Source: a virus
Length of the DNA stretch: 64,000 nt
Strand: one strand, 5' to 3'
IMG/VR virus record: IMGVR_UViG_3300020183_000007
Coordinates: 32,001-96,000 of that record
Shown here: positions 1-27,077 of the stretch, piece after piece
Numbering within the stretch: position 1 is the stretch's first letter
How the letters are laid out: each line of letters starts with the position of its first letter
Program-made: the position numbers and the translations under genes
The notes under the pieces: generated by a model
What the model was told of the DNA's origin: nothing
The model's input: the letters and a program-made list of their open reading frames with translations, nothing else
The model's database searches: none

Positions 1-548
1 CTTGATCCACCGGATCCTCTATTATTTTCTAACGGATTTCTGCTTTCAGAGGAAGTAATCATTGTATTTCTTATAATTTGCAAAGAATTTTCAACAAAAG
101 TATTGCCAATATTTTTTCCGGCCATACTCTTAGATAGTATTTTATTCCATGCCGCAGCTCCGGTTAGAGTGGCATTATTAGAGCCAGTAGGATCCCCCTC
201 GGGGCCAACACTAAAATCTGTTGCTTCAGGGTTAGCTATTGTAATGGTCGCATTTTCGGGAGTGGTAGCGGATGCAGCTGCAGCTCCGCCAGTAATCAAA
301 CCATTTAAAGATGCAGATACACTTGCATTCATGGCTGCTATAGGATATTTTTTACTTCTATTTAAAACATCTCCAGCCATAACTCCAGTTACATCAAAAG
401 AACTTAATGTTCTTCCTGTGGCAGGAGGCGCTAAAGAAGCGCTAGTGTTTAAAACTGGTGATTTTCCACCGGGGTAAAAATCCCCATGTATAGTTTTAGC
501 AAAAGATGCGCTATCAGAAAGAGATTCATTATTAATATTAAATGACAC
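1..548 (-). CDS. Hypothetical virion/baseplate-region protein, partial (runs off the left edge)
   Basis: Not in the ORF track. Manual translation gives GTG at 548-546, with an AGGGAG SD overlapping the TAG of the 3718-aa gene. The frame reads VSFNINNESLSDSASFAKTIHGDFYPGGKSP... with no stop to position 1. Confidence 0.6.
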   Translation of the reverse strand, partial: MSFNINNESLSDSASFAKTIHGDFYPGGKSPVLNTSASLAPPATGRTLSSFDVTGVMAGDVLNRSKKYPIAAMNASVSASLNGLITGGAAAASATTPENATITIANPEATDFSVGPEGDPTGSNNATLTGAAAWNKILSKSMAGKNIGNTFVENSLQIIRNTMITSSESRNPLENNRGSGGS

Positions 549-558
549 AATAAACTCC

Positions 559-3500
559 CTATTGCCCAACTCTTGCGGGCATTATTGCTGATTCTTCGGC
601 ACTGATGACAGAATTCCCCTCAATTTGAAGCTGCTTAGTATATACTGTAGCCAAGTTATTTGTTACCAATTCCCAATTTAGGGTAACAGGATGGCCATTT
701 TCATAGTATTCATCCCAGAATATAGTAGGCCATTCTCTAGTTTTATTATAGGTAGATTCTAGTACTTTATACTGCACTAAATCGTTATACAATTTAATTG
801 TTTCACTATTGGATAATCCATATTTAGTATTTGTATCGAGTGTTATGGATAGTGGCGAAGTGTAAACTAAGCCTAATGCTGAAAGCGCATTTAATATTGA
901 GTCTTTCTTAACAAAAAGTGGTGAATCTTGATATATAGAGTTAAAGAATAATTGTTTTATTTTTTGCTCTGCGCCGGCGCCAATTTGATTATCTATAAAA
1001 CATTTTTCAACAAAATCTTTTGCTGCCTGGACTATAGACTCTGGCTGATAATACCATACTGTACCAAGGATTCTATTTGACTCTGTAACATCTTTAGTAT
1101 AGTTTGCAACAGTATTTTGCTCTGCCCCAGCCTCGAAATCAGATTCAGAAATAACAGAACTCGACGCTGCGTTGTTAATTCTTATTCTTAAAACTACTAA
1201 TCTGTTTTCTAATTTAGATTGTACGAATATCTTAGCTTTACCACCAGGAGTATTGATTGCAGTCATTTTCGTTGATGGCGTTGAGTCATTACTATAGCTA
1301 ACTCCTAAATCGCCATCATTTGATGTAACAGTAAATGTATTAATTTCGCCAGAGTCTATTCCATCAAATCTGACAGTAAATTTTGCCCCAGAAATAACAT
1401 CCTGTACATCAAATGTGTCACCATCTTTAAATTTTATAACTTTAGCAATAACGCTAAATAGTGAAGGTTGGAGATTAGTTTTATCTGGACCTAGCCCACT
1501 TAATTGTAGCACTCTTGCATGAACTAGAGCATTCTCGTAATCTATGTATCTTATTAGATCTGTTGTCTGCCTTTCTTGCCAACCTAAACTCTTCAAAAGA
1601 TCGTCGCTTCTAATAAAAATATTTCCTTCTGGTGTTCTAACTTTTGTCCTTGCACCGAGCAGGCCGGGGAGCAATACTTTAGAGTGATGCCTGCCAACAA
1701 CCATACCCTGATTATAAGATAGTCCAGCATCCATCGGCTGACCATTCTTGCTAAGATATTGAACATAACATCCGTGTTGGTCAAGAACATTGTCTCTAAT
1801 CCATTTCCAACCCTTCCATGCCAATTGACCAACTATTGGCACAGACAAACCCATAGCAAAGCCTGCTACTCCGGTAGCGCCAGCGCCAGCTGCAGCCGCT
1901 GCGATGCCCACTCCGCCAGTTAAGGCAGTAGTCATTCCCTGAAAAACAGATCTGCTAGCAGAAGAACCATATTGCTTAATCACAGCTTCTGCTTTTTGGG
2001 GAAGAGTTGTAGCTGTTTGATTTGCCATAATATCCTTAATTAAAGCAGTAGATCCATGAGTGTATTGTAATCCACCAATCATCTGGGGGCTTAAGGCGTC
2101 GGATAAAGCATCTACTGATACCATTCCGCCTAAATTAATGCCGCTGTTGGATGCCATTATATTATCCATATAGAAACGTGTATCATTTCTTAGGTTTTGC
2201 ACAGTGAACCATGAGTTAATCCATGAGCTCAAAAACCATCTGGCAGGATCGTTAACGGTCACCAAAGCATTTGGTGTAATCGATGTAATATAGCCCATTT
2301 CTGGAGTAAAGTGATGTACTATTTGTTCAACTTCAAAAATGCCGTACATTCTTTCATAAACATCCGACAAGTAAACCAGGTCATGCGGACGTATATCAGC
2401 ATTCCCGATTATAATTAATTCCCCACCATATATATCTTTAATTGATTCTCTCAGGTGCGCTAACGCTATTCTTCTAGCAGATAGTTCGTCAGGTGTGCCC
2501 TGAATATTTTTTGCTATACCCCTGACTGTTTCCAGGGGATGCATTAGTGGATGCAGCACACCGAGAAATCCAGATCCAACGAAATTATCGTAATACAAAC
2601 CTGTTTCAACAGTTTTTTCAGTTTGACGCTCTGCTGGCGCGCCTTTGTCTAGGGCTACTGTAATTGGATACTTGCCATCTGAGACAGCTGTAACAACAGT
2701 AGAAACTCCATTTAGGTTTTCTTGAATCTGATTAGATATAATATGAGAAAATGAACTTAAATAATGCAATCTTTGGAATGATTGCCTAACTTCCACAACT
2801 GGCTCACCATACTCACGAGTAAACGGATTATCTACAGCCCTCAATAGGCTACCCTCTCTTCCAAGCGAATAATAAATAGAATCATTTAGAACTTTATTTA
2901 ATATATGAGCTTGCCTACTAAAATTACCAACTTCGGTGATAGCATATCCCATTTGCATCATGGCCAATTTAAACATACCTAAAAGACCAGAAAGACCGTC
3001 GCCTATTGCACTCATAATTGGCCCTATGTTTCTATCATAGAAATTACCAACGCTTTCTGATATTCCACTAATAAAAGTAGAAGAACCAGTTCCTTCCGAT
3101 TTTGTGGAAACTAAAAGCTTCAGAAATTTATTTTTATCCTTAGCGTATTCACCATAAGGATTTATAAAAGCTTCAAAAATTTTATCAACAGGTTTGAATG
3201 ACCATTGCCCCTCAGAACCGCCTCCACCACTTGTTATAATTCCCCTTTTACGGTTGGGCTTTAATACTAACCATGCTCTACCATAAGCTGTACTCCAAAG
3301 ATTTTGTCTAAATATTCCAACCATTAAAAGAAATAATTGTTTTGGAGTTTTAATTTTTTCACTTAGAGCAATAGCCTCTTCAGGATTTTTTTTATTTTCT
3401 AAAGCGTACTCTAATATCGAGTTTGTAACTCCAGACTCAAAAAAGTTTTCTTTGATTCCATTAAGAGCGTCAGCAATAGTAGCATTAAAAAATTGTATTA

Positions 3501-6500
3501 TCCCTGTATCAGATTCTTTTTCTGCTGCTATTAAGTCTATATAGTTTTTTCTTATAAACTCTACTGCGTTTCTTCTTTGAGTAGCGTTTGTTGACGGAAC
3601 ACCTTGACCACCCATCTGTGGATTATTGGGTATATTAAAATAATCTGCACCTAACAAAATAGCTAATTCATCTACTGCGGTATTTTCAGTGTTAGATAAA
3701 CCTGCGATTGGAATGTTTGAATCCTCAAAATTACTAAATGAGTTTTCGTTTGAGGATCCTAATATTCTAGCAAATTCTTCTGGAAATGCGTCCGTTGAAT
3801 CTGGGTCCATTCCATAAATTCTTGCAAAAATAGCTTTAACGCTATCATATGTATGATAACCAAATCTGAACTGATCCCATATATCATTTGCTTGATTCAG
3901 ATTTCTTCCATTACCAGCTATAACTGATACATTCGGGTCAAAATTTTCATCATAATAAGATCGAGCTTCAACTGAAACAGAGTCCAAAGGGTCATATACA
4001 CTTAAGAATGCAGCTCTGCCCTTACTTGTCTTTACATCTCCGGTTGTACTCAGCTCTTCATCTAAAACGTCATATAAATAACTTCTAGAAAGTTGTTCAT
4101 TTCCTACTAGATCGGAATCTTCACTTGATCCTAAACCACCAGACTCTGCTGAGGAATTAAAGTTTGTAGCATCTAATAGTGCATTAAAGTAACCTATAAA
4201 TGGTTTATCTCTTCCGTCTGGAACTGCTAAAGCATTGCCGCCAAAATCAAATCTGCTAGAAGATATTTCCGCATTTATAGGAATCCACTCCGAGAATATA
4301 TTTGGAGGATCTACCATGTCCTCATCATAAACCTTAAATCTAGAGCCAGCTCCACCTTGAAGTTCATTTATTAAATCCTGAGAAGTTGTGCGTCTTGCTG
4401 TCAGTTCTGATAACTGACCATCTTCTGTCATTGTGTAATTTCCAAAACCAAGGATCATGCTGTCATCCGGAGATCTGGCTCCTCTTTCAAGGAATCTTTT
4501 TATCGGAGCTGCTGCTGAAGATATTACACCTACAGGAACATCGTCTGGCACAAATGCAAACATACATTCCACTGGCTGTGGATTTATACTTAATCCACTT
4601 TCATTTTCATAATTTAACTCATCTTCATTACCAAAAATAGATACATTTAATCTATCGGTAATTCTATTTCCTATATATATAGGAGCGCTAATATATTGCG
4701 AAACGTTTAAAGCATAACCAAGCGCAGTGCCTGCAGCGCTGCCTACAGCGCCAGCTGCACTTGCCATTGTATTTATCCATGATGGCAATTGGTTTAATAT
4801 ATCGGATTCCTCTGAGTTAGCGGTTAATTTAAAACTTAAATTTTTTGATATGAAGTTACCCAAATACCATGCAGCGTCTGGAGAAACTACAGCTGCCGCC
4901 GTATCATCATCATCTCCCCATAGGAAATATGCTGGAGCGCAAACAACAGCCCTATTAGTTCTGGGACTATAAACTAAGACTTTTCTCTTTTTATAATCTT
5001 CTGCTGTTCCATATAAATCCGTAAATCCATACTTTTCTTTGAACTTTTCCAATGTTTCATCATAGACAGTTATGTTATTAAAGCCCGAAGGAGCTTGCGT
5101 AGAAGAGAATCCAGGATTATATGGCCATTTCATAGCAATGTAAAATTGTTCTGCCTCTGCTGCTGTTTGCTGAGAGGCAGGGAGGTCACCGGGAGATCCC
5201 CATTCTTCATAAGATATCTGATTTGATATCTCATACTCAAACGAATAATCATCAGCATTTCTCTTTGCCTCAGAAGAGCTAACTGAGTATTGTGTAATTG
5301 CAGCTGGGTCAACAGATATGCTTAATCTATTAGCTAAAACAGAGGGCAGAGGCATTCTTACATACTTTGTATTTGCTCCACCAATAAAAGACAAACCATC
5401 TACATCAATAATATTATCAATAAAAGTTGAGAACCCCAAAGGACGATCTAACTCTAATATTCCAGAAGATGGCACTAGAGTTAGTTCATTATTTAAAATG
5501 AACTTGCTTTCATACTGAAGCAGGGTAAACATGTTGGCCATAAAAGTTGCGCCACCAAAAGATCTTCTATCTTCTGCCATTGCCTCATTGACAAACCCTT
5601 GAAATTCTTCGGCGTCCATTGGAACTTCGCCTTCATTATCTAGAAACTTTCTTCCAGATTTGCCAATATCCTTAAAATGACTGGCTGCGTTCTGAAAAAC
5701 TCCGCCGTCTCTAATACTATAAGATGTAGAGTCTAATATAATAGTTTCATTGATTGTGTAAAACGGGTACCTAAATCTTGGCGGAAGATTATCCAACTGA
5801 GCATGGGCTTTTGTCATTGGAGCAATAGTTGTAGTCGGATCTCCAACAGGAAGGTGGAAACCAACTCTTGTTAAGCCAACTACTGTTGGTAGTTTTGCTA
5901 CTACCACTTTAGTTCCGTCGTCTTGTGTTTCAGAAAAGCTTGAAGCTAATGGTGAGTTAAAGTTAATTAATTTTTCTTTCAAAAATGCCGTAGGCTTATA
6001 AATGCCCTGTGAATTAACTTGATCACTAGCTAAGCTTGCCATTGTATCTGACAGTTCATTAGATCTTTTAAATGCTTCATAATCAGCAAGTGTGTTACTG
6101 GATCTATTTATATTACTCATAATATTTTGAATATCTTCATCTGCCGAACGATATTTTGGATAGCCAGGTAATTCTAGTTCAGAGCCTCTTTGCGTACTAG
6201 GAAAACCAGTAGTTACAGGTACTACGCCCGAAGTGTAAAGCCAGTGAGGCTTACCATAAAATATTGTAGATCTATCTTCAAAAGGTCTAATGGCTACAAT
6301 ATAATTGGGTAACAATCTAGCGCAAACCTGGAATAAATCCCATACAGTTCTCATATATGTTTGAGCCCTGAAGGAGACTTCGTCAAAACCTGGTAGGTCA
6401 TCATCATCGTTTGGTGAAATAATACCCATTGTTCGGAAAAGATTGGTGCCACCTCTTCCTCTTAATATTCCAAATAATCCACCACCAGCTATTCCAGAAC

Positions 6501-9500
6501 CTATAGCAAAATTTACTCCAGGTATTAGACCTACAGCTCCAGCCAATCCACCCATAAGTATATTTTTAGTTGCGTTTGCCCTACCCTCACTAGATACTAG
6601 TTGATTTCCGGCAGTCATTGTTGAAATTGCTGTTTTGGCTGACACGGACTCATTTTGAGCTTCTACTATAAGACGATTCCAAGATCTGTCTCCGGCTCTT
6701 TCCAAATACGCTTGTCCTTTTAGTTTTTTACTATCTTCCTCCACTAAAGACGAAGCTGTCAACCATCCATCATCTATGTCTCCACCAAGGAACTGAGCAA
6801 AGCCTGTTCCATTTCCTGGATAAATATTTCTTTTGAAAATTTCTAAATCAACCTCTGCACAGAAGTTAGACATTAACTGCCCCATGCTAGTCATTATTCT
6901 TCCATCTCCAAAGAATGTGCTAACAGGGTTTCTTGTAAAAACATTAGTTGCCAACTTGAATGATGCCGCATTGGCAGCTCCGCCAACATCTCCTTGACCA
7001 AGATTAGAATAAACGCTTGCTACAACATTTCTTATTCCATCAGCTCTTGCCCTCTCTGATTCGCTTAATGGTTCGTATAGTGTTGAGCCAAAATGTCTAA
7101 TACCAAATCTATTTTCAGAAAAGACTGTTCCATTTGTAGCTCTAGCAAAAGCTTCCCTAAATCTTGATGCGCCCATTGAAAGCAATCTAACCATTAGGTC
7201 TCTAGGTTCAGACAAATACATGCCAGTATCTACGCCACCATCTATTTTACCTGTGTCGCCTTTTTTATTTGTAGAGTTAACTATTGCACTAAGCTCAATT
7301 GCATCAGACTGTGCTGTTACTGTAACAATTTCACCTTGCTCCACATTTGTTATCACACCATTGAAAACTGTTTGCAAAGAGTTTGGATTAGCACCATATC
7401 CAACCCTAAGATGAACGCGAACTCCAGGCTTTAATCTAATATTATTAATATCTACAACATAATCATTTCTCATTCCTGAGACAATATTTTTAGCTATATT
7501 CAAAGTTCTATCCAAAATAGATTCAATACCTTGAGTAAAGTCTATTGGAGCATCATTTGGTTGGTTATCTCTAGAATTAAAAATTTCAGTAGAAGGACGT
7601 GTAGTCAATTTTGAATACATATTTGATACTCTAAATATTAAAGTATCACCCAAGAGATCCTCTGAGGAAACAACGGAAAAATCTACTATAGACTGCAACC
7701 CATAAAAGTTATCGAATAATTTAACACCAGCAAAAAAACCACCTTCGTCAATTAACCATAACATGTAGGTGGGAAATGCCCTGATCATTCTTCCAGATAT
7801 ATCTCTATACTGTACATCGTTCATCATCTTTTGAATATGGCTACCAAAGGATCCATCATAAGCTTTTTGATACTTATTTAATGACTGAACACCTTCTACG
7901 CCGGTAAGGGCATTTTTGCAACCTCTATCTGGCGTTTGTGTATCCTCAACCTGATTCTCTACTAGTCTCTTGTCTCCATGGTCATCTATCAAAACATTGG
8001 CTCCATCAACTGTTAAATAAAATCTTCCATTGTCTTTATTAATATAGCCAAAATGAGTCCCTAATGCTGATTGCATCATTGCCGGAATGTCTGATCCGGA
8101 TCCAGCTTCTTGCGGATTTGTTGCTGGAATCAAGTATATAACTTTATGAAAATCAACTTCATCTGGATTAAAGCTGACTTCTGTTTCAGTTGCTAAATGA
8201 GAATTTGTCAAAACCTGTTTGATTAAATTTAGCGTTTCTGCACTACTATAATTTACATTACCAACGGAATAACCGGCTCCAGAAATTTCTTCAAATACTG
8301 GATTATCTTCAGTTGATTGTGCAGAAATAAAAACATAATCGGTTAATAAGGCTTGCTTTTCTGAAGTTTGAAACTCAGAAGTTTCTGCTTGTACCACTTC
8401 TTGGAAAAGACTAATAAAGTTATGAACGCTTATGCCGCTACTGTTCACATAGTCTATGATTTCGTCAATTAATATTTTATTATTATTTGCTCTTAAAAGC
8501 TGCGGCAATGGCTCATTGGCAATATCCTTATAAGCGTATCTTCTAAGAAAATCTGTAATTCTATTTTTAACTTGATTTTTTCTTATTTCTATACCACGCG
8601 CATCTCCCAGCTTAGCCCAATTATCACTATAATCAAATTTAAAATCTTTTGTTATATCTGGTTGATAAGTAAAGTTATTAATGACATCTCTGTCAAACAT
8701 TTCAAAACTTCTAAAATAGAAGTCTGGATCCAAATTGCCAACTATTTCATTTTCTTTATCACGAACTTCCAGCGGCATATCGGGATATGCATTAAATGCT
8801 CCCCACAACTGCTTAATTCTTAAAAATGGATTTCTTTTTGACCCAAAGTGGTCAATAAAATCTTTTTGCTGCTTTGATGAAAGCTTTTCTCTTTTTTGCT
8901 GAAATATGTCAAAGTCAACAAAACTTAATTGAACATTGTAAACATGTGGATAATTTGGTATTGTATCGACTTTGAAGTTTAATGGAATAACATATTTGAT
9001 TCCACATAGTGCGCTAATAATATTTTTAATTCCAAGGAAACCAATAACTCCCGTAGAGTGTTCAAGCCTTGCTAATGAATTGATATGATCAAAAATTGCT
9101 CTAATTTTATAAAGCTCTCTTTCACCAAAAACAGTCATTGATATATTGACATATGAATCTTTTCCACCTATATACTGATATGTTGGTTCCTCCTGCATTT
9201 GCACTTGCAACTTCGAAAGGTTGTTTCCAAGACTTACGCTTACACCATTAACTATAGCTTTTTTAGGGTCTAAATCAACTCTGTTCATTGGGACTTCCCA
9301 TTCCTGGAAATGGTAATCTCCCTCCCTTAAACGCTTTGCCTCCATAAGATTTTGGATATAGCCATCAGAAAAAAAGCGATCATACAGTGATAATAAGAAT
9401 GCATCAGTTACTTGTTGACGAATTTTTTTTTCGTCAGGCACGGCTGTTTCGGTGCCTAAAACTTTTCTTTTTTCAATCTCTTCGACAATCAAAGTTTCAA

Positions 9501-11715
9501 TAATATTACCAGAAGAATAAACTGAATCCCAAATACTTTTTTTGATAAAGTTTAAACTAACACTATTATTTTTATTATTGAAAACTGGATCATTCAATAT
9601 ATATGATCCTTCTGTTGGATATAGGGTAAAGTAGTCTACATCAAATGGCATTTGGTCTGGAGTTAGGTAATTCAACAACCATTCTTTTTCTTGTGTCGTC
9701 AACTTTAATATGTTGCTTGATATAAATGACTGTACCTTGTATTTATAGATTCCAGCCCTGTAGTCACTTTGATTAATACCAGCAGTAATTATATCTACAG
9801 ATTGCCTAACAGCTGTCTTAATAGAAGGGGGGAATGTTGGCTCTAGAGAAAGAGACTTGATTTGATCTAAATCACGAATTGCTGGTGTATTTGGAGAAAT
9901 TTCAATTCCGAATTTTGCCAGCAAACCATTCCACAGTCCAAAACTTTGTTGATTAAGAATTTTTTCCTGCTCACTTCTGAAAGAAGAAGTATCAGGTAAG
10001 AACATTTTTGTTTGAGTTTCAGCTGGAGTATAAAAAGTTAAGTTACTACCGTCTCTCCACTGAGCAACTATATTGGTATATAAAACATCATTTTCATACG
10101 TGTTAAGCAGTTCTACTGTGTCATCCGTTAAAGAAGAATCTACTAGCGCAGATTCATCGATTAAAATAGGTCCATGTGGATTTTTCTGATATATATATGA
10201 GTCACTACGAATTATTCCAGTATTATCTTCTGTCTCTTGGACATTTTTATTATCGGACGTCTTTAGTAAGAAGGATTCGTTTGCGTATTTATGCATTGCA
10301 CCCGCTGCTTTACCCATGTACTGCCTGTATTTACCCCAATGAATTGCTTGATTAAAGTCTTTGAGCATTGGCAAAAATGGTTTGTGATTATAAGCGAGCA
10401 GCTCTAAATCAACCATTAAAGAAAATGGATAATTAGGAACTGTAGAAACAGACATAGAAGATAATGCCACAGCTGAAATTCCATGGACAGAATTTATATA
10501 ATCATTTTTTATTGGAAGTATTGGAGAGTATTTAAATGCTGCTACTAATCCACGCAAAGAAGAAAGAAACTTATCTATTTTTTCTTCCGAATCTCCAGTA
10601 TTCTTAAAATCTATTTTAAAATTTTCCTTAAGATCTATTGCCGAAGCATCGCTTATATGCATGCCCCATATTTCTTCATAGTTTGGAAAGAATAATCTTA
10701 AAGAGATTGAAGTTTCTTTATAGCCAGCATTATATTTGGGAGTATTTCTTTGTCTGATTGCTCCGCCAGTAAGTGATCCAGTTTTAAATGCAGAATTAAC
10801 CGTGATAGAAATAGGCGGTACATAAAAATTAGCTGCGCCTAAACGCAAATGAAAAATATCAGGTTTTTTGGGAGGTATATGAGCTCTATATGGAAAGTCT
10901 TCTATTGCCTTACGAATTCTTTCGGAAGTGTTACCTCCAATTCTAAAAGCCATAGTAAATATTGGCTCACCATTTGGAGCAAGACCAAAAGCTTTTTCCA
11001 ATTCATCAATAGCATCCTCTTCCCTATTGAGGGTATCCTCTTTTCCGCCACCCTTGCCTGCATTTGAGTAGTCGCCTGTTACAGCCAACGCATCAAAAAC
11101 AAACGTCATTAAACCCGGCAGGTAGTGATTTATAATAGAGAAAGATATAGGATCCGCTTGAAGATTGTAAACTACTTGGCTTAATAAAGTAAGCCATTCG
11201 GTATCAACCGCTGGATCTATGTGATAATCTAAAGACTTTTGTGTAATATACACATTTTGTAGTCTTTTCTTGCCCAATTCACTTATTTCATAGGCGAATG
11301 ATGCTAGATATAGTAGGCCGGTAGATTCTAGCCTTTTATACAAATTTACCAGAAGAGTATTGTCGTCAATGATTGAAGACAATGTGCCCCCAAGCGTAAA
11401 AACTCTAGTAGTAGCTTCTACCCTTTTCTGATAGTTATCTTTCGCTTCTTCCAGACCAGATGAATAATCTGCAAGGGTTGCATAATGATCTATATCAAGT
11501 ATGGGAAGAATTTCAGGCCTAGTTAAAGAAAAAAACCTTTCAAAAGCTTCTTCTGAGTTTTTGTACCGAGACTTAGGTAAATAATCATCGGTTAGATTAA
11601 GCGGACCAACCGTCATCATATTCACAAAAGCTTTTTGACTGTAATTATATGACAATGGGTCTGCGGAGTTTAAATTCTGTTCTTCTTGATTTTCCGATTG
11701 TTCGATATTAGACAT
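559..11715 (-). CDS. Giant multidomain baseplate hub protein (3718 aa) with tube-like N-terminal domains, hub, RlpA-like domain and C-terminal SNase nuclease
   Basis: Hub-like segments KPGVRVHLRVGYG...VFNGVITNVEQGEIVTVTAQSD (~7290-7430) and GELIIIGNADIRPHDLVYL..DVYERMYGIFEVEQIVHHF (~2270-2420) resemble gpD/gp27/VgrG hubs. SNase motifs are DGDTF, VRFDGIDSGE, NRILGTV and LNWELVTNNLATVY. Lies downstream of the tape-measure-like gene. Confidence 0.8.
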   Translation of the reverse strand: MSNIEQSENQEEQNLNSADPLSYNYSQKAFVNMMTVGPLNLTDDYLPKSRYKNSEEAFERFFSLTRPEILPILDIDHYATLADYSSGLEEAKDNYQKRVEATTRVFTLGGTLSSIIDDNTLLVNLYKRLESTGLLYLASFAYEISELGKKRLQNVYITQKSLDYHIDPAVDTEWLTLLSQVVYNLQADPISFSIINHYLPGLMTFVFDALAVTGDYSNAGKGGGKEDTLNREEDAIDELEKAFGLAPNGEPIFTMAFRIGGNTSERIRKAIEDFPYRAHIPPKKPDIFHLRLGAANFYVPPISITVNSAFKTGSLTGGAIRQRNTPKYNAGYKETSISLRLFFPNYEEIWGMHISDASAIDLKENFKIDFKNTGDSEEKIDKFLSSLRGLVAAFKYSPILPIKNDYINSVHGISAVALSSMSVSTVPNYPFSLMVDLELLAYNHKPFLPMLKDFNQAIHWGKYRQYMGKAAGAMHKYANESFLLKTSDNKNVQETEDNTGIIRSDSYIYQKNPHGPILIDESALVDSSLTDDTVELLNTYENDVLYTNIVAQWRDGSNLTFYTPAETQTKMFLPDTSSFRSEQEKILNQQSFGLWNGLLAKFGIEISPNTPAIRDLDQIKSLSLEPTFPPSIKTAVRQSVDIITAGINQSDYRAGIYKYKVQSFISSNILKLTTQEKEWLLNYLTPDQMPFDVDYFTLYPTEGSYILNDPVFNNKNNSVSLNFIKKSIWDSVYSSGNIIETLIVEEIEKRKVLGTETAVPDEKKIRQQVTDAFLLSLYDRFFSDGYIQNLMEAKRLREGDYHFQEWEVPMNRVDLDPKKAIVNGVSVSLGNNLSKLQVQMQEEPTYQYIGGKDSYVNISMTVFGERELYKIRAIFDHINSLARLEHSTGVIGFLGIKNIISALCGIKYVIPLNFKVDTIPNYPHVYNVQLSFVDFDIFQQKREKLSSKQQKDFIDHFGSKRNPFLRIKQLWGAFNAYPDMPLEVRDKENEIVGNLDPDFYFRSFEMFDRDVINNFTYQPDITKDFKFDYSDNWAKLGDARGIEIRKNQVKNRITDFLRRYAYKDIANEPLPQLLRANNNKILIDEIIDYVNSSGISVHNFISLFQEVVQAETSEFQTSEKQALLTDYVFISAQSTEDNPVFEEISGAGYSVGNVNYSSAETLNLIKQVLTNSHLATETEVSFNPDEVDFHKVIYLIPATNPQEAGSGSDIPAMMQSALGTHFGYINKDNGRFYLTVDGANVLIDDHGDKRLVENQVEDTQTPDRGCKNALTGVEGVQSLNKYQKAYDGSFGSHIQKMMNDVQYRDISGRMIRAFPTYMLWLIDEGGFFAGVKLFDNFYGLQSIVDFSVVSSEDLLGDTLIFRVSNMYSKLTTRPSTEIFNSRDNQPNDAPIDFTQGIESILDRTLNIAKNIVSGMRNDYVVDINNIRLKPGVRVHLRVGYGANPNSLQTVFNGVITNVEQGEIVTVTAQSDAIELSAIVNSTNKKGDTGKIDGGVDTGMYLSEPRDLMVRLLSMGASRFREAFARATNGTVFSENRFGIRHFGSTLYEPLSESERARADGIRNVVASVYSNLGQGDVGGAANAASFKLATNVFTRNPVSTFFGDGRIMTSMGQLMSNFCAEVDLEIFKRNIYPGNGTGFAQFLGGDIDDGWLTASSLVEEDSKKLKGQAYLERAGDRSWNRLIVEAQNESVSAKTAISTMTAGNQLVSSEGRANATKNILMGGLAGAVGLIPGVNFAIGSGIAGGGLFGILRGRGGTNLFRTMGIISPNDDDDLPGFDEVSFRAQTYMRTVWDLFQVCARLLPNYIVAIRPFEDRSTIFYGKPHWLYTSGVVPVTTGFPSTQRGSELELPGYPKYRSADEDIQNIMSNINRSSNTLADYEAFKRSNELSDTMASLASDQVNSQGIYKPTAFLKEKLINFNSPLASSFSETQDDGTKVVVAKLPTVVGLTRVGFHLPVGDPTTTIAPMTKAHAQLDNLPPRFRYPFYTINETIILDSTSYSIRDGGVFQNAASHFKDIGKSGRKFLDNEGEVPMDAEEFQGFVNEAMAEDRRSFGGATFMANMFTLLQYESKFILNNELTLVPSSGILELDRPLGFSTFIDNIIDVDGLSFIGGANTKYVRMPLPSVLANRLSISVDPAAITQYSVSSSEAKRNADDYSFEYEISNQISYEEWGSPGDLPASQQTAAEAEQFYIAMKWPYNPGFSSTQAPSGFNNITVYDETLEKFKEKYGFTDLYGTAEDYKKRKVLVYSPRTNRAVVCAPAYFLWGDDDDTAAAVVSPDAAWYLGNFISKNLSFKLTANSEESDILNQLPSWINTMASAAGAVGSAAGTALGYALNVSQYISAPIYIGNRITDRLNVSIFGNEDELNYENESGLSINPQPVECMFAFVPDDVPVGVISSAAAPIKRFLERGARSPDDSMILGFGNYTMTEDGQLSELTARRTTSQDLINELQGGAGSRFKVYDEDMVDPPNIFSEWIPINAEISSSRFDFGGNALAVPDGRDKPFIGYFNALLDATNFNSSAESGGLGSSEDSDLVGNEQLSRSYLYDVLDEELSTTGDVKTSKGRAAFLSVYDPLDSVSVEARSYYDENFDPNVSVIAGNGRNLNQANDIWDQFRFGYHTYDSVKAIFARIYGMDPDSTDAFPEEFARILGSSNENSFSNFEDSNIPIAGLSNTENTAVDELAILLGADYFNIPNNPQMGGQGVPSTNATQRRNAVEFIRKNYIDLIAAEKESDTGIIQFFNATIADALNGIKENFFESGVTNSILEYALENKKNPEEAIALSEKIKTPKQLFLLMVGIFRQNLWSTAYGRAWLVLKPNRKRGIITSGGGGSEGQWSFKPVDKIFEAFINPYGEYAKDKNKFLKLLVSTKSEGTGSSTFISGISESVGNFYDRNIGPIMSAIGDGLSGLLGMFKLAMMQMGYAITEVGNFSRQAHILNKVLNDSIYYSLGREGSLLRAVDNPFTREYGEPVVEVRQSFQRLHYLSSFSHIISNQIQENLNGVSTVVTAVSDGKYPITVALDKGAPAERQTEKTVETGLYYDNFVGSGFLGVLHPLMHPLETVRGIAKNIQGTPDELSARRIALAHLRESIKDIYGGELIIIGNADIRPHDLVYLSDVYERMYGIFEVEQIVHHFTPEMGYITSITPNALVTVNDPARWFLSSWINSWFTVQNLRNDTRFYMDNIMASNSGINLGGMVSVDALSDALSPQMIGGLQYTHGSTALIKDIMANQTATTLPQKAEAVIKQYGSSASRSVFQGMTTALTGGVGIAAAAAGAGATGVAGFAMGLSVPIVGQLAWKGWKWIRDNVLDQHGCYVQYLSKNGQPMDAGLSYNQGMVVGRHHSKVLLPGLLGARTKVRTPEGNIFIRSDDLLKSLGWQERQTTDLIRYIDYENALVHARVLQLSGLGPDKTNLQPSLFSVIAKVIKFKDGDTFDVQDVISGAKFTVRFDGIDSGEINTFTVTSNDGDLGVSYSNDSTPSTKMTAINTPGGKAKIFVQSKLENRLVVLRIRINNAASSSVISESDFEAGAEQNTVANYTKDVTESNRILGTVWYYQPESIVQAAKDFVEKCFIDNQIGAGAEQKIKQLFFNSIYQDSPLFVKKDSILNALSALGLVYTSPLSITLDTNTKYGLSNSETIKLYNDLVQYKVLESTYNKTREWPTIFWDEYYENGHPVTLNWELVTNNLATVYTKQLQIEGNSVISAEESAIMPARVGQ

Positions 11716-12180: not shown

Positions 12181-15100
12181 TTAAAATGAGCTAGCGAGCT
12201 GCTGATATGGATCAGACGTCACACTTGGGATCCTATTATACATAGTACTGTTAATCGGTCCATTAGTAAGTCCAGAAGCTGCTTGTTGAAATCTTTCAAC
12301 ATCCTGCCTAGAACCATATAAGGAAACCTTGTAACTCATTCCAGAAGCAGATGCCTGTCCACCAATTTGGGGAACAGAAACATTAGAAGTTGGATATCCC
12401 TGCTCATAAGCTGATCCACCAGGAAGAAGCGGAGGACCCGCAGCGTCTTCTGTTGTTTTATCTTTTTTATTTTGATATAAAAAGCTTCCCGCTATCAATA
12501 GTCCTGCTGCGATGGCAGTTTTTTGAACAGATGGCTTAGAAAACTGCTCTGTTAAATAATCCATATCTAAACGTTTAAATTTAGATGGATTTACATTGGA
12601 TGGAGATTGATCTTCAAGATCTCTCAAAACATTACCAACTATACCCTTTGGTTTATCTTTGCGTCCGACGACTTTATCTGCAGATATTTGACCATTCAAA
12701 AAATCGTCTATTGCGGGATCCAAAATGTCTCTTTCATATAGAGCCCTAGATCTTATGGCATTAGATATGGTTTTTATAGTTTCATCTGTAGTATCTTCCA
12801 CACCTTTTCCTACAGCTTGACTTAATTGTTGCATGTCGATACCTAAATCTGCAAACATTCCAGAAACATCGCCATATTGAGAAAGGTCTAAAGCCCTTTG
12901 TTTGGTGTTGCCTTCAATAATATCCGTAAGCAGTAACTCCCTCGTGGATGATGTGGCGCTAAAGAAATTGTCAACAATATTTTTGACTTGTAAATTTGAA
13001 GTTGCCTTTGTGTAGGCTGCTTTATTCCTTTTCGCCATGTTAAGTCTGGCAAAAAGATTAGCAAATTCTTCATTTGAATCCTCGGTAAGATCAGTTAACT
13101 GCTCAAAAACATATGAGCTCATTCCACGATCTGAAGCTTCTAATTGAAGTGCATTTAATAAATTAAATCCAGTTAAAGGTCTTTGTGATCTAACTTCATC
13201 AATTCCTCTTAATAAATTGTCTCCTAATTCAGTTTTTAATATTTCAGCTCTTAATCGAGCCTGTTCAAAGCCCATAGATAGCTCTTGCCTTCTGGCAGCA
13301 TCGATAAACTGTCCATCCTCTATGCCTTCTCTAAATAATTTTTGTGCGTCTCTATAAGCTGCATTGGCTTCCATAAGTTCGTCAAAAATATTCTGATTTG
13401 CATCTAAAATAGCTTTTGCAGATAATTGTGCTTCAGTAGCGTTTTTGCCCATGCCAGCAGTAAGCGTATCTCTTAGTTCTTTCATATTATCGCCAAATCT
13501 TTTTCTCGCTGCGTTGAAACTATCTTGAGCTTGCTGAGCAATTTCAATTGTTTTAGAAAGATTACCTCTACCAATAACTCCTATATCTGTTAGGGCCGTT
13601 ATTATTTTAGCTTTAGAAGGGGCATCTCCGCCTTCAAACAGATTCTTTAATTTACTAAGATCTTCATCAGTTTGTATTCCTTCAGCAATCCTAGCCTCAG
13701 CGCCCTTTATATAACTCTCAGCAAAAGCTGTAAGGTCATCTTTGTTTAACTTTCCAAAATCAATGAGAGCCTTGTCGAGAACAAACTGTTGCCCCCCTCT
13801 ATGTTGTAGATATCCGAACATTTCCCCATATTGACTCACAGCTTCTGCGCCGCTTGTTTCTAGATCAAAATTATTTCCATACATTCTTCTAAAAATATCC
13901 ATGCCATATCTAGTATCTGCTGCTGCTTCTGCCTCCATTTTTAATTTCAGTCTTCCAGAAGTAAATGTTTGGGTCATGTCTACTGCGGTTTCCGATGATG
14001 GAAAACCTACCAATAGCCCTTTCCCATTGTCATATCGCCTAAGTGCATCGTTAATTGCTTGATCAGATCCAAAAGCTTTTTCAAATTGAGCCAAACCATC
14101 TGCAATTACCGTAGCTCTGTTAACATGCTTACCAAGATTGTTAGCGTTTTCCGTAGATGCTTTTTCCATGCTTTCAAGATAGAATTTATTAAATGCAATA
14201 GCTTTTTTATTTTTATCTAATTGAAAACTATCTAAAGTTTCACGAAAAGCTTTTGAAGCTTTCTTTATATCTGCCTGTGCCTGTTCTAATGCCGCCAGCT
14301 GCACTGGATCATCGTAAACAGAACCAGGTATAAACTGACCGGAATATGCCGGACCTTTTAATGCTTGTATCTGATCTCTGATAGCACCTAGTTGCGTTTT
14401 TTGCTGATCTGTCATAAGATGCTCATACATCCGATAAATATCATCTTCAAGATTCATTTCCATAACTTCAGTCTTTAACTTTTGAAAGCCAAGGGAAGTT
14501 AAGCCCGGATCAACGCCAGCAAAATCAACTAATCTAGATCCTGCAAAAAAATCAACTGTACTAGCACCCTGCTTTAGGACGCCTAGTGATTCGAAATATG
14601 CTCTATCAAAAGTTCTTGCTTTTCCACCATACAATCTATCTCTAACATCTATAATTGTTTCCTCAAGTTCATCTAATAATGCAGACTGATCAATTCGTGT
14701 CATTTCTTCTGATGTGAATTTTCCAGATAAATTTTGCTGTAAAATATTTAATCTGTCTAAGGTTGGAGAACTACCAGAACCTGCCAATTTTTCTTTTTCA
14801 TCTAAAATCATTTGATCTAAAGTTTTCATAAAATCTGCGTTATGACCAAATAATTCTTGATAACTTTCTATATCATTAAAGCGAACAAACCCAATCATTT
14901 CGCCTGCACCCGTGGGCTGACGAGCCATGGCCATAGCCAAACGTCTTTTGCCATTAGACATGTAGGTTCCCAAAACTGGTAGCCCTTTGTCGTCAAGGTC
15001 GAATCCACCAAGAGCATGGTGGAACCTAATAACATCCCTTTCGCTCATTAATAAGTTGTGATTAGAAAATCTTACACGAGTTGTACTGAGACTGAATCCT

Positions 15101-17256
15101 TCATCCATCATTATATTTTGATCAGTCATATCCAAGAACATTCTGCCACTTGATATACCAATCTGGGTAGATTCTGCGTTCAAAGCAAATCTATACACAT
15201 CGGGCATTACTGGTAGTGGTATTCCCTTTTTAATCTTAAAAAATTCTTTTTGAGCAAAATCTATAATTCTATTCATAGCCCTGGGATGCTGATCTAGCGG
15301 AATGCCACTTCTATGGATTTCAAGTATCTCTTGCGCCATATTCCTATTCATTAGTTGAGAAAATTGCTGAGTGTCTAATATATCTTCAGATTGGAAATTT
15401 GCAGCGCTTAATAGGGATTGATAAAATTTTCCATTCTCATCAATCCTATTTGCTTTTAACATCTCGTTAAATTCTTTTTGTAAAGCAAGAGAATACTCTC
15501 TACCCAATTGTTGCGATTGTGGCGAACCAAATACTGCTGCATGAAACGCATCAAGCATAGGATCGGCATAGACTGCACCTTTAGACTCTCCGGTACCAGA
15601 AATGTTTAGAATGTCTGTTAAACCAGATATTCTAGTTTCTCTTTTCGTTGTTGCCTTTGGTGCAATAATAGAATATTTTGTATATCTTCCAGTAAACTCA
15701 ACACTCATTGCTGCGCCTTTTAGAGAGAATATTCTAGCGGGGCGCGCTTGATCTCCCGCATCAAAGACAACATTTCCACGAACAGTTATTTGAGACAAGC
15801 CCTTAGATTTATCTAATTGGCTCGAGGATCTCTGAATTTCTCTTTTTTTCAAAAGAATATCTTGTTTTTCTAATCTACTAGTAGCCTGTGCATACTGTTT
15901 ATCTAATTCATCTATCTCAGATTGATACCCTTTTCGAATAGCTTTAGTATAGGAATCATTTATCAACATAGAACCATCTGACCCCTTTTCCATCTCATCA
16001 AGTAAAACGTCAATAATGTTAAACTTTTTATCTATTTCACTTAAAGCCTTTTCATCGCCAGCTGCACCTTTTTCTAACCTATCTTTCAATAAACCAAGCT
16101 TACTTTTCAAAACATCTGTACCATATTTGCCAACAGTAATATCTACATCTCCACTGTCTATAGCGTCTTGCATAGCTATCTTTAGATAATTGCCAATATC
16201 AGAATATACTTCAGTTTTTATTGGCCCTGGCCCAGTCTGTCCACGAATTACCTCATCTAAAATTATTTTATAAAAATCCTTAGATCTATCTTGACCCCCA
16301 ATCATCCAAGAATCTCTTATTCTTTGCGCTGCGTCTGCGGCTTTTTCTGCATTGTTCATTCCTGAAACATTTTTCAATGTATCAATATCTAGAGCTAACC
16401 CCAGTGCCTCAAAAACTGGATCAGTGTTAAGAATTGAATCAGCGAATGATAACCCAGGCTTACCAACTTCATCCAATATTGATTCTAGAGCACCACCAGA
16501 AACAGAAACCTCTCTTGGAGACAAAACGCCACGCAATCTTTTATCCAACTTTTGAATTAAAGAAGCTACTTTTTTATTTCCCGACCTCAAAGCGTCCTCT
16601 AAAACATCTGGATCTATAGCAGATACATTTGCTGCCTGCATCACTTCCAATGTTTGATCTAAACCTAGAACTTGTTTTTTGCCAGCAATTGTCGCAACCA
16701 AGTTCAAAGCAATTCCGCCATCATCCGTAGGTAAGAGTAAACCATAGCCTTTTTGCTTCTGTGCATCAAAAAAGGCTTTTAGCGCTTCAGTGCCCTGCTG
16801 AGTATCTAGTCCACCTTTATGAATAGCGATATTCATCTCTAAAGCTTCTATACCAAAAAGATTTTGCTGTATGGCGACTTTTTCCATATCCCTTAAAACC
16901 TGACCATATCCCCTATATACAACGGGGACATCATCTTTTGATAATCTGTAAACTTCAGTAATATGCAGCGAAGAAAAATATTCTATAGCGTCGTTAACAG
17001 AGTTAAATACTTTCCTGCCTTCATCTGGATCAAAATAAGATGACCTATATTTTAAAATGTTATCTGCTGGATCGACAAACGGTTCTATTAACCTTTTTTG
17101 GCCAGTAGGTATTTTTCCTATTATTCTTCTAGCTGCTCTAACTTGTTTCTCTGGAGATAAAGGAGACAAGTACGCAGACAAATAGTCGCTAAAGGATTCA
17201 TACTCAGGAATCTCTTGTCTTCGTTTTTCTAGAAAACTAGCTATTTTCCCCAACAT
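12181..17256 (-). CDS. Large virion-module protein (1691 aa), putative divergent single-subunit two-barrel RNA polymerase
   Basis: The ORF itself is unambiguous. Motifs in order: S426-D-G-S-M-L-I, SQITVRG, SLK513G, IIAPKATTK538, VMPDVYRFAL, G750GFDLDD, R779QPT, N806ADF. These resemble the two double-psi barrels of YonO/RdRP/beta-beta' polymerases. There is no canonical DxDGD. Confidence 0.55.
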   Translation of the reverse strand: MLGKIASFLEKRRQEIPEYESFSDYLSAYLSPLSPEKQVRAARRIIGKIPTGQKRLIEPFVDPADNILKYRSSYFDPDEGRKVFNSVNDAIEYFSSLHITEVYRLSKDDVPVVYRGYGQVLRDMEKVAIQQNLFGIEALEMNIAIHKGGLDTQQGTEALKAFFDAQKQKGYGLLLPTDDGGIALNLVATIAGKKQVLGLDQTLEVMQAANVSAIDPDVLEDALRSGNKKVASLIQKLDKRLRGVLSPREVSVSGGALESILDEVGKPGLSFADSILNTDPVFEALGLALDIDTLKNVSGMNNAEKAADAAQRIRDSWMIGGQDRSKDFYKIILDEVIRGQTGPGPIKTEVYSDIGNYLKIAMQDAIDSGDVDITVGKYGTDVLKSKLGLLKDRLEKGAAGDEKALSEIDKKFNIIDVLLDEMEKGSDGSMLINDSYTKAIRKGYQSEIDELDKQYAQATSRLEKQDILLKKREIQRSSSQLDKSKGLSQITVRGNVVFDAGDQARPARIFSLKGAAMSVEFTGRYTKYSIIAPKATTKRETRISGLTDILNISGTGESKGAVYADPMLDAFHAAVFGSPQSQQLGREYSLALQKEFNEMLKANRIDENGKFYQSLLSAANFQSEDILDTQQFSQLMNRNMAQEILEIHRSGIPLDQHPRAMNRIIDFAQKEFFKIKKGIPLPVMPDVYRFALNAESTQIGISSGRMFLDMTDQNIMMDEGFSLSTTRVRFSNHNLLMSERDVIRFHHALGGFDLDDKGLPVLGTYMSNGKRRLAMAMARQPTGAGEMIGFVRFNDIESYQELFGHNADFMKTLDQMILDEKEKLAGSGSSPTLDRLNILQQNLSGKFTSEEMTRIDQSALLDELEETIIDVRDRLYGGKARTFDRAYFESLGVLKQGASTVDFFAGSRLVDFAGVDPGLTSLGFQKLKTEVMEMNLEDDIYRMYEHLMTDQQKTQLGAIRDQIQALKGPAYSGQFIPGSVYDDPVQLAALEQAQADIKKASKAFRETLDSFQLDKNKKAIAFNKFYLESMEKASTENANNLGKHVNRATVIADGLAQFEKAFGSDQAINDALRRYDNGKGLLVGFPSSETAVDMTQTFTSGRLKLKMEAEAAADTRYGMDIFRRMYGNNFDLETSGAEAVSQYGEMFGYLQHRGGQQFVLDKALIDFGKLNKDDLTAFAESYIKGAEARIAEGIQTDEDLSKLKNLFEGGDAPSKAKIITALTDIGVIGRGNLSKTIEIAQQAQDSFNAARKRFGDNMKELRDTLTAGMGKNATEAQLSAKAILDANQNIFDELMEANAAYRDAQKLFREGIEDGQFIDAARRQELSMGFEQARLRAEILKTELGDNLLRGIDEVRSQRPLTGFNLLNALQLEASDRGMSSYVFEQLTDLTEDSNEEFANLFARLNMAKRNKAAYTKATSNLQVKNIVDNFFSATSSTRELLLTDIIEGNTKQRALDLSQYGDVSGMFADLGIDMQQLSQAVGKGVEDTTDETIKTISNAIRSRALYERDILDPAIDDFLNGQISADKVVGRKDKPKGIVGNVLRDLEDQSPSNVNPSKFKRLDMDYLTEQFSKPSVQKTAIAAGLLIAGSFLYQNKKDKTTEDAAGPPLLPGGSAYEQGYPTSNVSVPQIGGQASASGMSYKVSLYGSRQDVERFQQAASGLTNGPINSTMYNRIPSVTSDPYQQLASSF

Positions 17257-17258
17257 TT

Positions 17259-26194: not shown

Positions 26195-26206
26195 GATATT
26201 ACCTTT

Positions 26207-27004: not shown

Positions 27005-27014
27005 TAAAATCTCC

Positions 27015-27051
27015 AAAAAATAAATAAATGCATGGAAGATACCTCCCATGC
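27015..27051 (-). terminator. Rho-independent terminator after the major tube gene
   Basis: Minus strand GCATGGGAG-GTAT-CTTCCATGC (9-bp stem with one G:U) followed by ATTTATTTATTTTTT. Confidence 0.7.
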
Positions 27052-27077
27052 ACTTATTTCGGCGACACTAGAAATTA

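Follow-up and report, generated by a model that had tools for sequence, protein, structure and literature searches.

Why a phage should carry a nuclease on its tail tip is a question that has stood since an SNase-bearing hub was noticed in 2007, when a homologue of the 0305phi8-36 protein gp147 from the prophage-like BtI1 was reported to carry an SNase domain whose role seemed 'not obvious' (Hardies, Thomas & Serwer 2007, PMC2147016). The question arises again in a 64,000-nucleotide stretch of DNA (the window; positions 32,001 to 96,000 of the 179.6-kb virus record IMGVR_UViG_3300020183_000007) from an uncultured, contractile-tailed phage of ~180 kb. From the ORF list and its translation, one giant gene (P0001; 559..11715, (-) strand, as for all features of this gene given below) encodes 3,718 aa plus a stop. 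A sequence-only reading had proposed that the product is a baseplate hub ending in a hydrophobic segment and an 'intact' SNase domain. All six strings quoted in support of that proposal fall in one frame of the 3,718-aa ORF and had been placed to within a few bases; they comprise a Gly/Ala hydrophobic string (aa 3267-3296, window 1828-1917), KFKDGDTFDV (aa 3428-3437), TVRFDGIDSGE (3447-3457), GGKAKIFV (3491-3498), SNRILGTV (3546-3553) and LNWELVTNNLATVY (3679-3692).

The carrier protein and its C-terminal layout

We compared the giant protein with gp147 by BLASTP and observed five collinear blocks, with E values of 3e-25 to 4e-7. A gp27/gpD domain-1-like block, aa 1294-1543 (7087..7836), is 27% identical to gp147 aa 833-1063 (E 3e-25), matches phrog_20474 at E 8e-121, and has tblastn matches in the hub proteins of five Bacillus/Moorella jumbo phages. 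The C-terminal hub domain, aa 2975-3156 (2248..2793), matches gp147 aa 1191-1415 (E 9e-17) and phrog_8809, and is separated from the first block by an insert of more than 1,100 aa. Blocks nearer the N-terminus, aa 271-560 and 813-996 (8728..10905), are collinear with gp147 aa 245-694 (E 1e-16 and 1e-11). gp147 itself has been placed in the T4 gp27/P2 gpD family by HMM-HMM comparison (PMC2147016). Direct tests of hub-family membership gave no Pfam family for the whole protein, only noise in a profile search of the C-terminal hub block against the PDB, and an E value of 0.12 for hhalign of that block against P2 gpD, which is not significant and falls at the expected C-terminal motif. A structure model of aa 2900-3300 had a mean pLDDT of 36.

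Gene order runs from sheath (27769-29031) and tube-like genes, which lie upstream of the hub gene, through genes for giant proteins to the hub gene itself, with genes for a gpW/gp25-like product (126 aa) and a Baseplate_J product (389 aa; PF04865, E 5e-11) downstream of it. The hub gene thus occupies the slot expected for the hub family, with tape-measure-slot genes on one side and gpW/gpJ-type wedge genes on the other, and one BFVD homologue bears the name 'Baseplate hub protein'. Homology to gp147 and gene order together support the identification of the carrier as a gp27/gpD-type baseplate hub, in agreement with the sequence-only reading. Homologues numbered 253, with lengths of 2.0-4.1 kaa, and came from contigs of up to ~210 kb. 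Three of these contigs are MAG-binned (Cyclobacteriaceae, Iamiaceae and Planctomycetaceae), which is not decisive for the host; the binning hints at Bacteroidota as a possible host group.

The hub protein contains at least two Gly/Ala-rich hydrophobic segments free of charged residues. The first spans aa 1719-1751 (6463..6561; Kyte-Doolittle 19-residue mean of at most 1.67). The second, 33 residues long, spans aa 3267-3299 (1819..1917; mean of at most 1.54) and directly precedes the C-terminal module, as had been proposed; a comparable segment lies 380-700 aa from the C-terminus in 114 of 120 homologues. It is followed by a family-specific domain, aa 3300-3417 (1465..1818), which has many invariant columns in alignment A2 and is the most conserved part of the hub C-terminal region. 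This domain has no match in Protein Atlas, Pfam or PDB (the top Protein Atlas score for aa 3296-3420, 0.78, is noise), and its pLDDT is below 60 everywhere and below 50 over about two-thirds of its length. The protein then continues with an SNase-like domain, aa 3418-3696 (628..1464), and ends in a short tail, aa 3697-3718 (562..627), with pLDDT of 40-51.

A stretched SNase-fold domain

We modelled the C-terminal region with AlphaFold, using an alignment of 54 homologues as input. The model is confident across aa 3418-3696 (pLDDT 80-95). Foldseek matched the domain to SNase and SND1 structures throughout its top PDB matches (E 6e-4, probability 1.00), and its top matches in BFVD were likewise all SNase or thermonuclease proteins. 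VIA-align against SNase chains gave Z scores of 11-12 and rmsd values of 2.3-3.2 over 102-111 residues, with 24-28% identity. The combined data indicate that the domain has the five-stranded OB barrel and helices alpha1 and alpha2 of the SNase fold, the outcome that the sequence-only reading had set as a check on its proposal. The VIA-align alignments cover SNase residues 6-116 and stop at residue 113-116; nothing in the hub domain was aligned with SNase helix alpha3.

Three insertions, of about 30, 30 and 115 aa, break up the fold. A variable loop, aa 3458-3488 (1252..1344), lies at the site of the SNase omega-loop and has low pLDDT at model residues 168-187; some homologues carry ~200 additional aa at this site. 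The largest insertion, ~aa 3556-3670 (706..1050; ~115 aa), is helical in the model (residues 264-365, pLDDT ~90), and corresponds to an insertion for which ~120 aa had been estimated from sequence. It lies between the strand with the R87 equivalent and the helix equivalent to alpha2. Canonical and stand-alone SNases lack it, as do the hub homologues of a sister clade (2,300-3,250 aa).

With E values of up to 10 allowed, Pfam searches of the whole protein and of three pieces of its C-terminus returned no family and left the SNase model unscored, which we attribute to the stretching of the fold by insertions; Pfam-based annotation is blind to SNase domains of this kind. When PDB sequences were searched by phmmer and hmmsearch, the region itself and profiles A1 and A2 all gave noise only, and the last 459 aa had zero tblastn matches among 50,697 GenBank phages. 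Profile A2, which represents the hub C-terminal region, picked up small PF00565-positive proteins at E 2e-5 to 9e-4 among 1.84e9 sequences, including P0223 (59.8 bits) and P0226 (89.6 bits), and hhalign of the hub region against the stand-alone SNases of the same phage family gave E 2e-6 and a probability of 90%. The profile and hhalign matches establish sequence homology to the staphylococcal nuclease family (PF00565). Sequence profiles and the structural model therefore agree in presenting the hub C-terminus as a real, if stretched, SNase-fold module of the SNase family.

Overlapping BLAST segments had raised the possibility of two SNase copies in some homologues; motif counts gave one copy in 118/120, and we rejected it. 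In P0122, P0123 and P0132 the C-terminal module appears as a separate gene of ~530-640 aa; their start positions are homologous to internal hub sequence, and they are probably contig-edge fragments.

Active-site residues, proposed function and alternatives

We aligned the hub domain with PF00565-positive proteins using hmmalign. DGDT at aa 3431-3434 (1414..1425) is equivalent to SNase D19, G20, D21 and T22, and RFDGIDSGE at aa 3449-3457 (1345..1371) provides the equivalents of R35, D40, T41 and E43. Canonical residues D19/D21/T22/R35/D40/T41/E43 thus map to aa 3431/3433/3434/3449/3454/3455/3457, with S3455 at the T41 position, and R87 maps to R3548 (1072..1074), which aligns with an arginine of P0224. 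The agreement with canonical SNases at the seven active-site residues is column for column, and the five catalytic equivalents named in the sequence-only reading are all in place: D3433 (D21), R3449 (R35), D3454 (D40), E3457 (E43) and R3548 (R87).

Conservation of these residues varies by position. Across 120 homologues, the D21 equivalent is Asp in 114, the R35 equivalent is Arg in 111 and Lys in nine, and the E43 equivalent is Glu in 89; at the R87 position we observed 89 Arg and 28 Lys, and at the D40 position 74 Asn, 23 Ile and 14 Asp. The pattern D-R-(D/N)-E-R is present in 87/120, across lineages with only 35-45% identity, and the sister clade of 2,300-3,250-aa hubs mostly has D-R-(D/N)-E too. 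By contrast, the active site is degenerate in 33/120, comprising one clade of ~29 and four single sequences, which have lost the D40, E43 and R87 equivalents and retained the domain. The description 'intact' consequently holds for the five catalytic residues in the source phage and its close relatives; it does not extend to the fold, with its unaligned alpha3 and three insertions, nor to the family, in which most members have Asn at D40 and one clade lacks D40, E43 and R87. Expected conservation in homologues was likewise borne out for the majority and not for the degenerate 33/120.

Among the sequence relatives that we found, the nearest is a stand-alone SNase encoded within the phage family itself (G000:C1:4-282; L092-L096), which has a canonical length of ~132 aa, is Pfam-positive (49-59 bits), and is 40-45% identical to the hub domain over the DGDT...R...G(I/V)NTxE half. 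Its gene lies ~30 kb from the hub gene and is present in the source genome and in 5/5 near-complete relatives, with 77-90% identity among the relatives. The D-R-N-E-R pattern is common to this enzyme and most hub domains, and Asn at the D40 position is invariant in the stand-alone protein, so Asn at this position is compatible with a maintained enzyme.

On the sequence and the model, the hub SNase domain is probably an active virion-borne nuclease. We see about an even chance that the fuller reading also holds: a working, metal-dependent, virion-borne nuclease on an enlarged jumbo-phage hub, held at a membrane and acting on extracytoplasmic nucleic acid. The gene product would be the central gp27/gpD-type baseplate hub of a contractile-tailed jumbo phage. 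Very large inserts would have expanded it, and its last hub domain is followed by the hydrophobic segment, the ~120-residue family-specific domain and the divergent SNase-family domain. D3433 and D3454 would be Ca2+ ligands, E3457 the general base, and R3449 and R3548 the phosphate-binding arginines. By analogy with trimeric hubs, three copies of the nuclease may be present at the tail tip, at the site where the Bacillus relative gp147 has peptidoglycan hydrolases. The substrate would be nucleic acid that the nuclease encounters outside the cytoplasm as the phage adsorbs or penetrates, for example DNA bound to the surface or in the matrix, or periplasmic nucleic acid, and the hydrophobic segment could retain the nuclease at the membrane once the tail has contracted. 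The retention of catalytic residues in most lineages, at the site of the cell-wall hydrolases of relatives, allows a nuclease step at adsorption or penetration to be put forward as a testable proposal, for example the removal of matrix or surface DNA. The association of SNase and hub is old and widespread, extending to hundreds of uncultured phages of ~200 kb in two deep clades; its practical value is modest for now.

Several of the observations above count against an active nuclease, namely the missing Pfam score, the unaligned alpha3, the three interruptions of the fold, and the ~29-member clade and four single sequences without D40, E43 and R87 equivalents. The proposed extracellular site is also open to doubt: the stand-alone SNase has no signal peptide, indicating that the source phage evidently uses SNase-type enzymes inside the cell, and this makes it less compelling that the site of action of the hub domain must lie outside it.

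A less probable alternative, which nevertheless deserves weight, is that the domain is mainly structural or binding, either plugging the baseplate centre or serving there as an adaptor of OB-fold type, or else as a polyanion- or DNA-end-binding module; the residues would then form a ligand or metal site and cleave nothing. A comparable role is played by the T4 gp5 or P2 gpV OB-fold domain, which docks beneath the hub. Retention of the domain in the ~29-member clade implies that the fold serves a non-catalytic purpose as well. The SNase domain is always the hub C-terminus, with no enzyme swap among 54 viral loci and 120 homologues; the helical insert is large, well packed and lineage-specific; and an active stand-alone SNase, as judged from its sequence, is already encoded in every related genome checked. 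On the other hand, 87/120 homologues and the distant sister clade retain surface active-site residues that folding does not require, and D/N toggling at the metal site parallels that in the stand-alone enzyme, which argues against a non-catalytic reading.

We consider it doubtful that the domain is an injected effector, as the sequence-only reading had suggested by comparison with a T6SS VgrG effector, with hydrophobic segments entering host membranes and the C-terminal module threaded into the cytoplasm for early degradation of host DNA or RNA. The uncharged Gly/Ala segments, one of them conserved upstream of the module in 114/120, and the signal-less stand-alone SNase, which places SNase chemistry in the host cytoplasm, are consistent with injection. 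However, there is no sign of any gp27/gpD-type hub leaving the tail tip, the phage genome would itself be exposed on entry to a non-specific nuclease in the cytoplasm, the segments are borderline for transmembrane helices (maximum hydropathy 1.54-1.67), and we identified neither a cleavage site nor a release signal. It is just as improbable that the hydrophobic segment, the ~120-aa domain and the SNase form a self-translocating module that carries the nuclease across the host membrane after tail contraction; if true, this would be the first phage hub to act as a true effector-injecting 'evolved VgrG'. That the SNase likeness arose by accident, through motifs occurring by chance on a generic OB-fold, is scarcely credible: although Pfam and PDB sequence searches gave no match, this reading is contradicted by the Z scores of 11-12 with 24-28% structure-based identity, by reciprocal profile matches to PF00565 proteins with an hhalign E of 2e-6, and by seven active-site residues that agree column for column.

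Comparison with known systems

A hub with an SNase domain has a close precedent in the 0305phi8-36 lineage (gp147, BtI1, vB_BceM_WH1 gp094, Edson and KLEB27-3), which likewise has enzyme-decorated giant gp27/gpD-type hubs in the same gene slot. We detected PF00565 at aa 175-263 of WH1 gp094 (E 1.4e-5, Pfam) and, by tblastn, an SNase domain in the Edson and KLEB27-3 hubs; in gp147, NlpC/P60 and M23 peptidase domains occupy the C-terminal position that the SNase domain has here. In that lineage, whose hosts are Firmicutes, the SNase domain is N-terminal, compact and detectable by Pfam, whereas in the source phage it is C-terminal, invisible to Pfam, expanded by the ~115-aa helical insert, and preceded by a hydrophobic segment and a conserved domain of a new kind, in a protein ~1,400-1,800 aa longer. 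hhalign of A2 against the WH1 gp094 SNase region gave a probability of 5%, which carries no evidential weight, though the alignment fell at the right motif. tblastn with the gp147 hub block did not recover the Acinetobacter phage ME3 hub, and we found no literature on virion-associated or tail-borne SNases besides PMC2147016.

With the evolved VgrG proteins of T6SS and with phage Tal proteins, the giant hub shares a hub-type module at a tail-like tip and a C-terminal enzyme extension. VgrG effectors are delivered, and Tal domains cut peptidoglycan; the enzyme type here is a nuclease. Pfam found no VgrG, gp5 or PAAR family in the hub protein or its neighbours, and neither a gp5-like beta-helix nor a T6SS context was found; the hub gene is part of a structural module of the phage. 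Of the label 'evolved-VgrG-like' used in the sequence-only reading, the architecture of a hub with a C-terminal enzyme therefore stands, as an analogy without membership. The nearer parallel is the published decoration of the same hub family with SNase or peptidoglycan-hydrolase domains (PMC2147016).

The hub domain shares with the PF00565 family the OB-fold barrel and helices, the D21/D40/T41 metal site, E43 and R35/R87. It differs in its three insertions, in the unaligned alpha3, in falling below Pfam detection, in being built into a virion protein of 3,718 aa instead of acting as a secreted enzyme, and in the Asn that most of its homologues have at the D40 position. The membrane-anchored S. 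aureus Nuc2 (PMC3994088) resembles the hub protein in having a hydrophobic anchor N-terminal to the catalytic domain.

The hub gene and its neighbourhood

The window spans bases 32001–96000 of one virus record 179.6 kb in length. The proposed nuclease domain is encoded at the 3' end of a minus-strand open reading frame of 3,718 residues (window 559–11715), delimited from the ORF list and its translation. All of the motif strings quoted in the sequence-only reading were located in this one frame, at positions differing by a few bases at most: a Gly/Ala hydrophobic segment (aa 3267–3296), KFKDGDTFDV (starting at aa 3428), TVRFDGIDSGE (aa 3447), GGKAKIFV (aa 3491), SNRILGTV (aa 3546) and LNWELVTNNLATVY (aa 3679), all on the minus strand. 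As judged from sequence comparison, the gene is real. We found 253 homologues, mostly 3.3–4.0 kaa long, in metagenomic and viral contigs of up to ~210 kb, and nearly every one of these conserves the C-terminal 419 residues over their full length, with 40–92% identity. Across the 54 viral loci examined, no protein extends more than 26 residues past this region. In one related viral contig (L049:3001–3165), the counterpart of the C-terminal module is interrupted after 55 codons by an in-frame stop; the gene may be split, or the stop may come from a frameshift or an assembly error.

Among PHROG families, the protein matches best to one of 1,954 positions that bears the label 'endolysin' (E 8e-121), and tblastn matched the protein to hub proteins of Bacillus phages 0305phi8-36, vB_BceM_WH1, Edson and KLEB27-3, and of Moorella phage MTATph1. 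Five blocks (aa 271–560, 813–996, 1294–1543, 1777–1825 and 2975–3156) are collinear with 0305phi8-36 gp147 ('baseplate hub protein'), with >1,100 residues inserted ahead of the last block. HMM-HMM comparison has placed gp147 in the T4 gp27/P2 gpD hub family (Hardies, Thomas and Serwer; PMC2147016). Upstream of the gene are sheath and tube-like genes and two giant genes in the tape-measure slot, encoding 2,231 and 1,691 aa (window 12181–23954, minus strand), that had no PHROG match; downstream are small proteins, including a gpW/gp25-like one, a Baseplate_J protein and, immediately adjacent, a 780-aa protein (G000:C1:30227–32569 of the whole virus record, minus strand; window 1–569 and beyond) with no PHROG or PDB sequence match and no Pfam match at E 0.01. 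Based on the homology to gp147, the published assignment of gp147 and synteny, the protein is probably a baseplate hub, as had been claimed. A hub-fold structure model had a pLDDT of 36, and hhalign of a hub block to P2 gpD gave no significant match. Three tandem genes directly after the sheath gene (333, 280 and 220 aa; window 25193–27740, minus strand) all match phrog_9206, whose label, 'major head protein', is doubtful, as their position suggests paralogues of the tail-tube type.

The C-terminal region

The hydrophobic segment expected ahead of the nuclease domain was found at aa 3267–3299, and a comparable segment lies 380–700 residues before the C-terminus in 114 of 120 homologues. It has no charge, is 50–77% Gly/Ala/Ser/Thr and reaches a Kyte-Doolittle mean of 1.54, making it a borderline candidate for a transmembrane helix; a stronger hydrophobic segment lies at aa 1719–1751. 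Between the segment at aa 3267–3299 and the domain resembling staphylococcal nuclease (SNase) is a conserved domain (aa 3300–3417; window 1465–1818, minus strand) with the landmarks QLAWKGWKW, DQHGCY and NGQPMD; nothing else in the whole C-terminal region is as highly conserved in a 54-sequence alignment (A2). Searches with aa 3300–3417 detected no relative outside the hub family, and its AlphaFold model gave no fold (pLDDT <60 throughout, mostly <50).

Pfam searches with the whole hub protein and with C-terminal pieces, up to E 10, returned no family; the hub domain also escaped the Pfam SNase model when the genome was searched in six frames; and PDB sequence and profile searches with the C-terminal region returned only noise. 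We modelled this region with AlphaFold2 using A2 as input, and obtained a pLDDT of 80–95 at model residues 123–400 (aa 3418–3695). The PDB entries ranked highest by Foldseek were all staphylococcal nuclease variants or SND1 SN domains (E 6e-4, probability 1.00), and VIA-align superposed 102–111 residues on SNase residues 6–116 (Z 11–12, rmsd 2.3–3.2 Å, 24–28% identity). The first structural match in a viral library was a homologue named 'Baseplate hub protein', followed by thermonuclease-like proteins of phages and giant viruses. In a search of 1.84 billion representative proteins with the A2 profile, the hub family's own members were followed by small proteins (E 2e-5 to 9e-4) that are Pfam SNase members (e.g. 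P0226, 89.6 bits; P0223, 59.8 bits). Aligned with the hub profile, the phage's own stand-alone SNase is 45% identical across the DGDT...R...NTPE half (E 9e-7), and an alignment of intact stand-alone SNases from five relatives matched the profile at E 2e-6 (probability 90%). The agreement of three independent lines, namely structure, profile search and the phage's own SNase, indicates that the domain is of SNase type, bearing out the sequence-only reading by the structure prediction that it had proposed.

The domain differs from canonical SNase by three additions: ~30 residues after E43 in place of the omega loop, modelled with low confidence and much longer in some homologues; ~25 residues ahead of the R87 strand; and a confidently predicted helical insert of ~115 residues between the R87 strand and helix alpha2. 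The last is absent from a sister clade and from the stand-alone SNases compared, and is thus lineage-specific. Members of the sister clade (P0140–P0215 in the representative library; 2,300–3,250 aa) end in the conserved domain and SNase module. Helix alpha3 has no evident counterpart, since the structural alignments end at SNase residue 113–116 and the final 22 hub residues are of low confidence.

Catalytic residues and possible role

Alignment with Pfam-positive SNases using hmmalign placed D19, D21, T22, R35, D40, T41 and E43 at aa 3431, 3433, 3434, 3449, 3454, 3455 and 3457, and R87 at aa 3548. The catalytic equivalences claimed earlier are therefore correct for this phage; they do not extend to all 120 homologues, 33 of which are degenerate. 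The D21 position is Asp in 114, R35 is Arg in 111 and Lys in nine, D40 is Asn in 74, Ile in 23 and Asp in 14, E43 is Glu in 89, and R87 is Arg in 89 and Lys in 28. Jointly, 73 homologues have D-R-N-E-R and 14, including the phage studied here, have D-R-D-E-R. Asp and Asn interchange many times at the D40 position on a tree of the SNase region, and the stand-alone SNase conserved in this family always has Asn there (GVNTPE), so Asn should not be taken as inactivation. The distant 2,300–3,250-aa clade mostly has D-R-(D/N)-E, and retention of catalytic residues across such deep divergence argues for a working active site.

We favour, with roughly even chances of its being right, a model in which the tail tip bears a probably active, metal-dependent nuclease, located where relatives have wall hydrolases and tethered by the hydrophobic segment, whose target would be nucleic acid lying outside the cytoplasm as the phage adsorbs or penetrates. 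Degenerate sites fall mainly within one clade of ~29 sequences, with four changes sufficing in all; loss of catalytic residues from a retained domain shows that the SNase fold has a non-catalytic role as well. An OB-fold module that is chiefly structural or binding draws support from this clade and from the presence of an SNase gene apart from the hub, but we consider such a main function rather unlikely given the conservation elsewhere. That the nuclease is an effector injected into the cytoplasm is more doubtful still: the hydrophobic segments would permit it, but nothing speaks directly in its favour. A chance resemblance to SNase is scarcely credible. For the tail-tip nuclease, then, the original observation is confirmed and its interpretation partly supported.

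SNases elsewhere in this and related phages

A canonical stand-alone SNase gene (PF00565, 28 bits), truncated by the contig end, lies at G000:C1:4–282 (minus strand), ~32 kb before the window start. All five near-complete relatives (L092–L096) have one ~132-aa copy, 77–90% identical and with no signal peptide. An SNase domain has been described on a gp147 homologue with the comment 'it is not obvious why', together with the proposal that stand-alone genes were its source by intragenomic transfer (PMC2147016). The co-occurrence of both forms in this genome and the five relatives fits such transfer, as does the Asn variant shared by most hub domains and the stand-alone SNases. Among cultured phages, WH1 gp094, a hub homologue, has a Pfam SNase match at aa 175–263 (E 1.4e-5), and Edson and KLEB27-3 have regions homologous to it. 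By contrast, the C-terminal slot that holds the SNase-like domain here is occupied in gp147 by NlpC/P60 and M23 wall hydrolase domains. Hub decorations of this kind are thus known, though functionally unexplained; new here are the C-terminal position, the inserts and the invisibility to Pfam.
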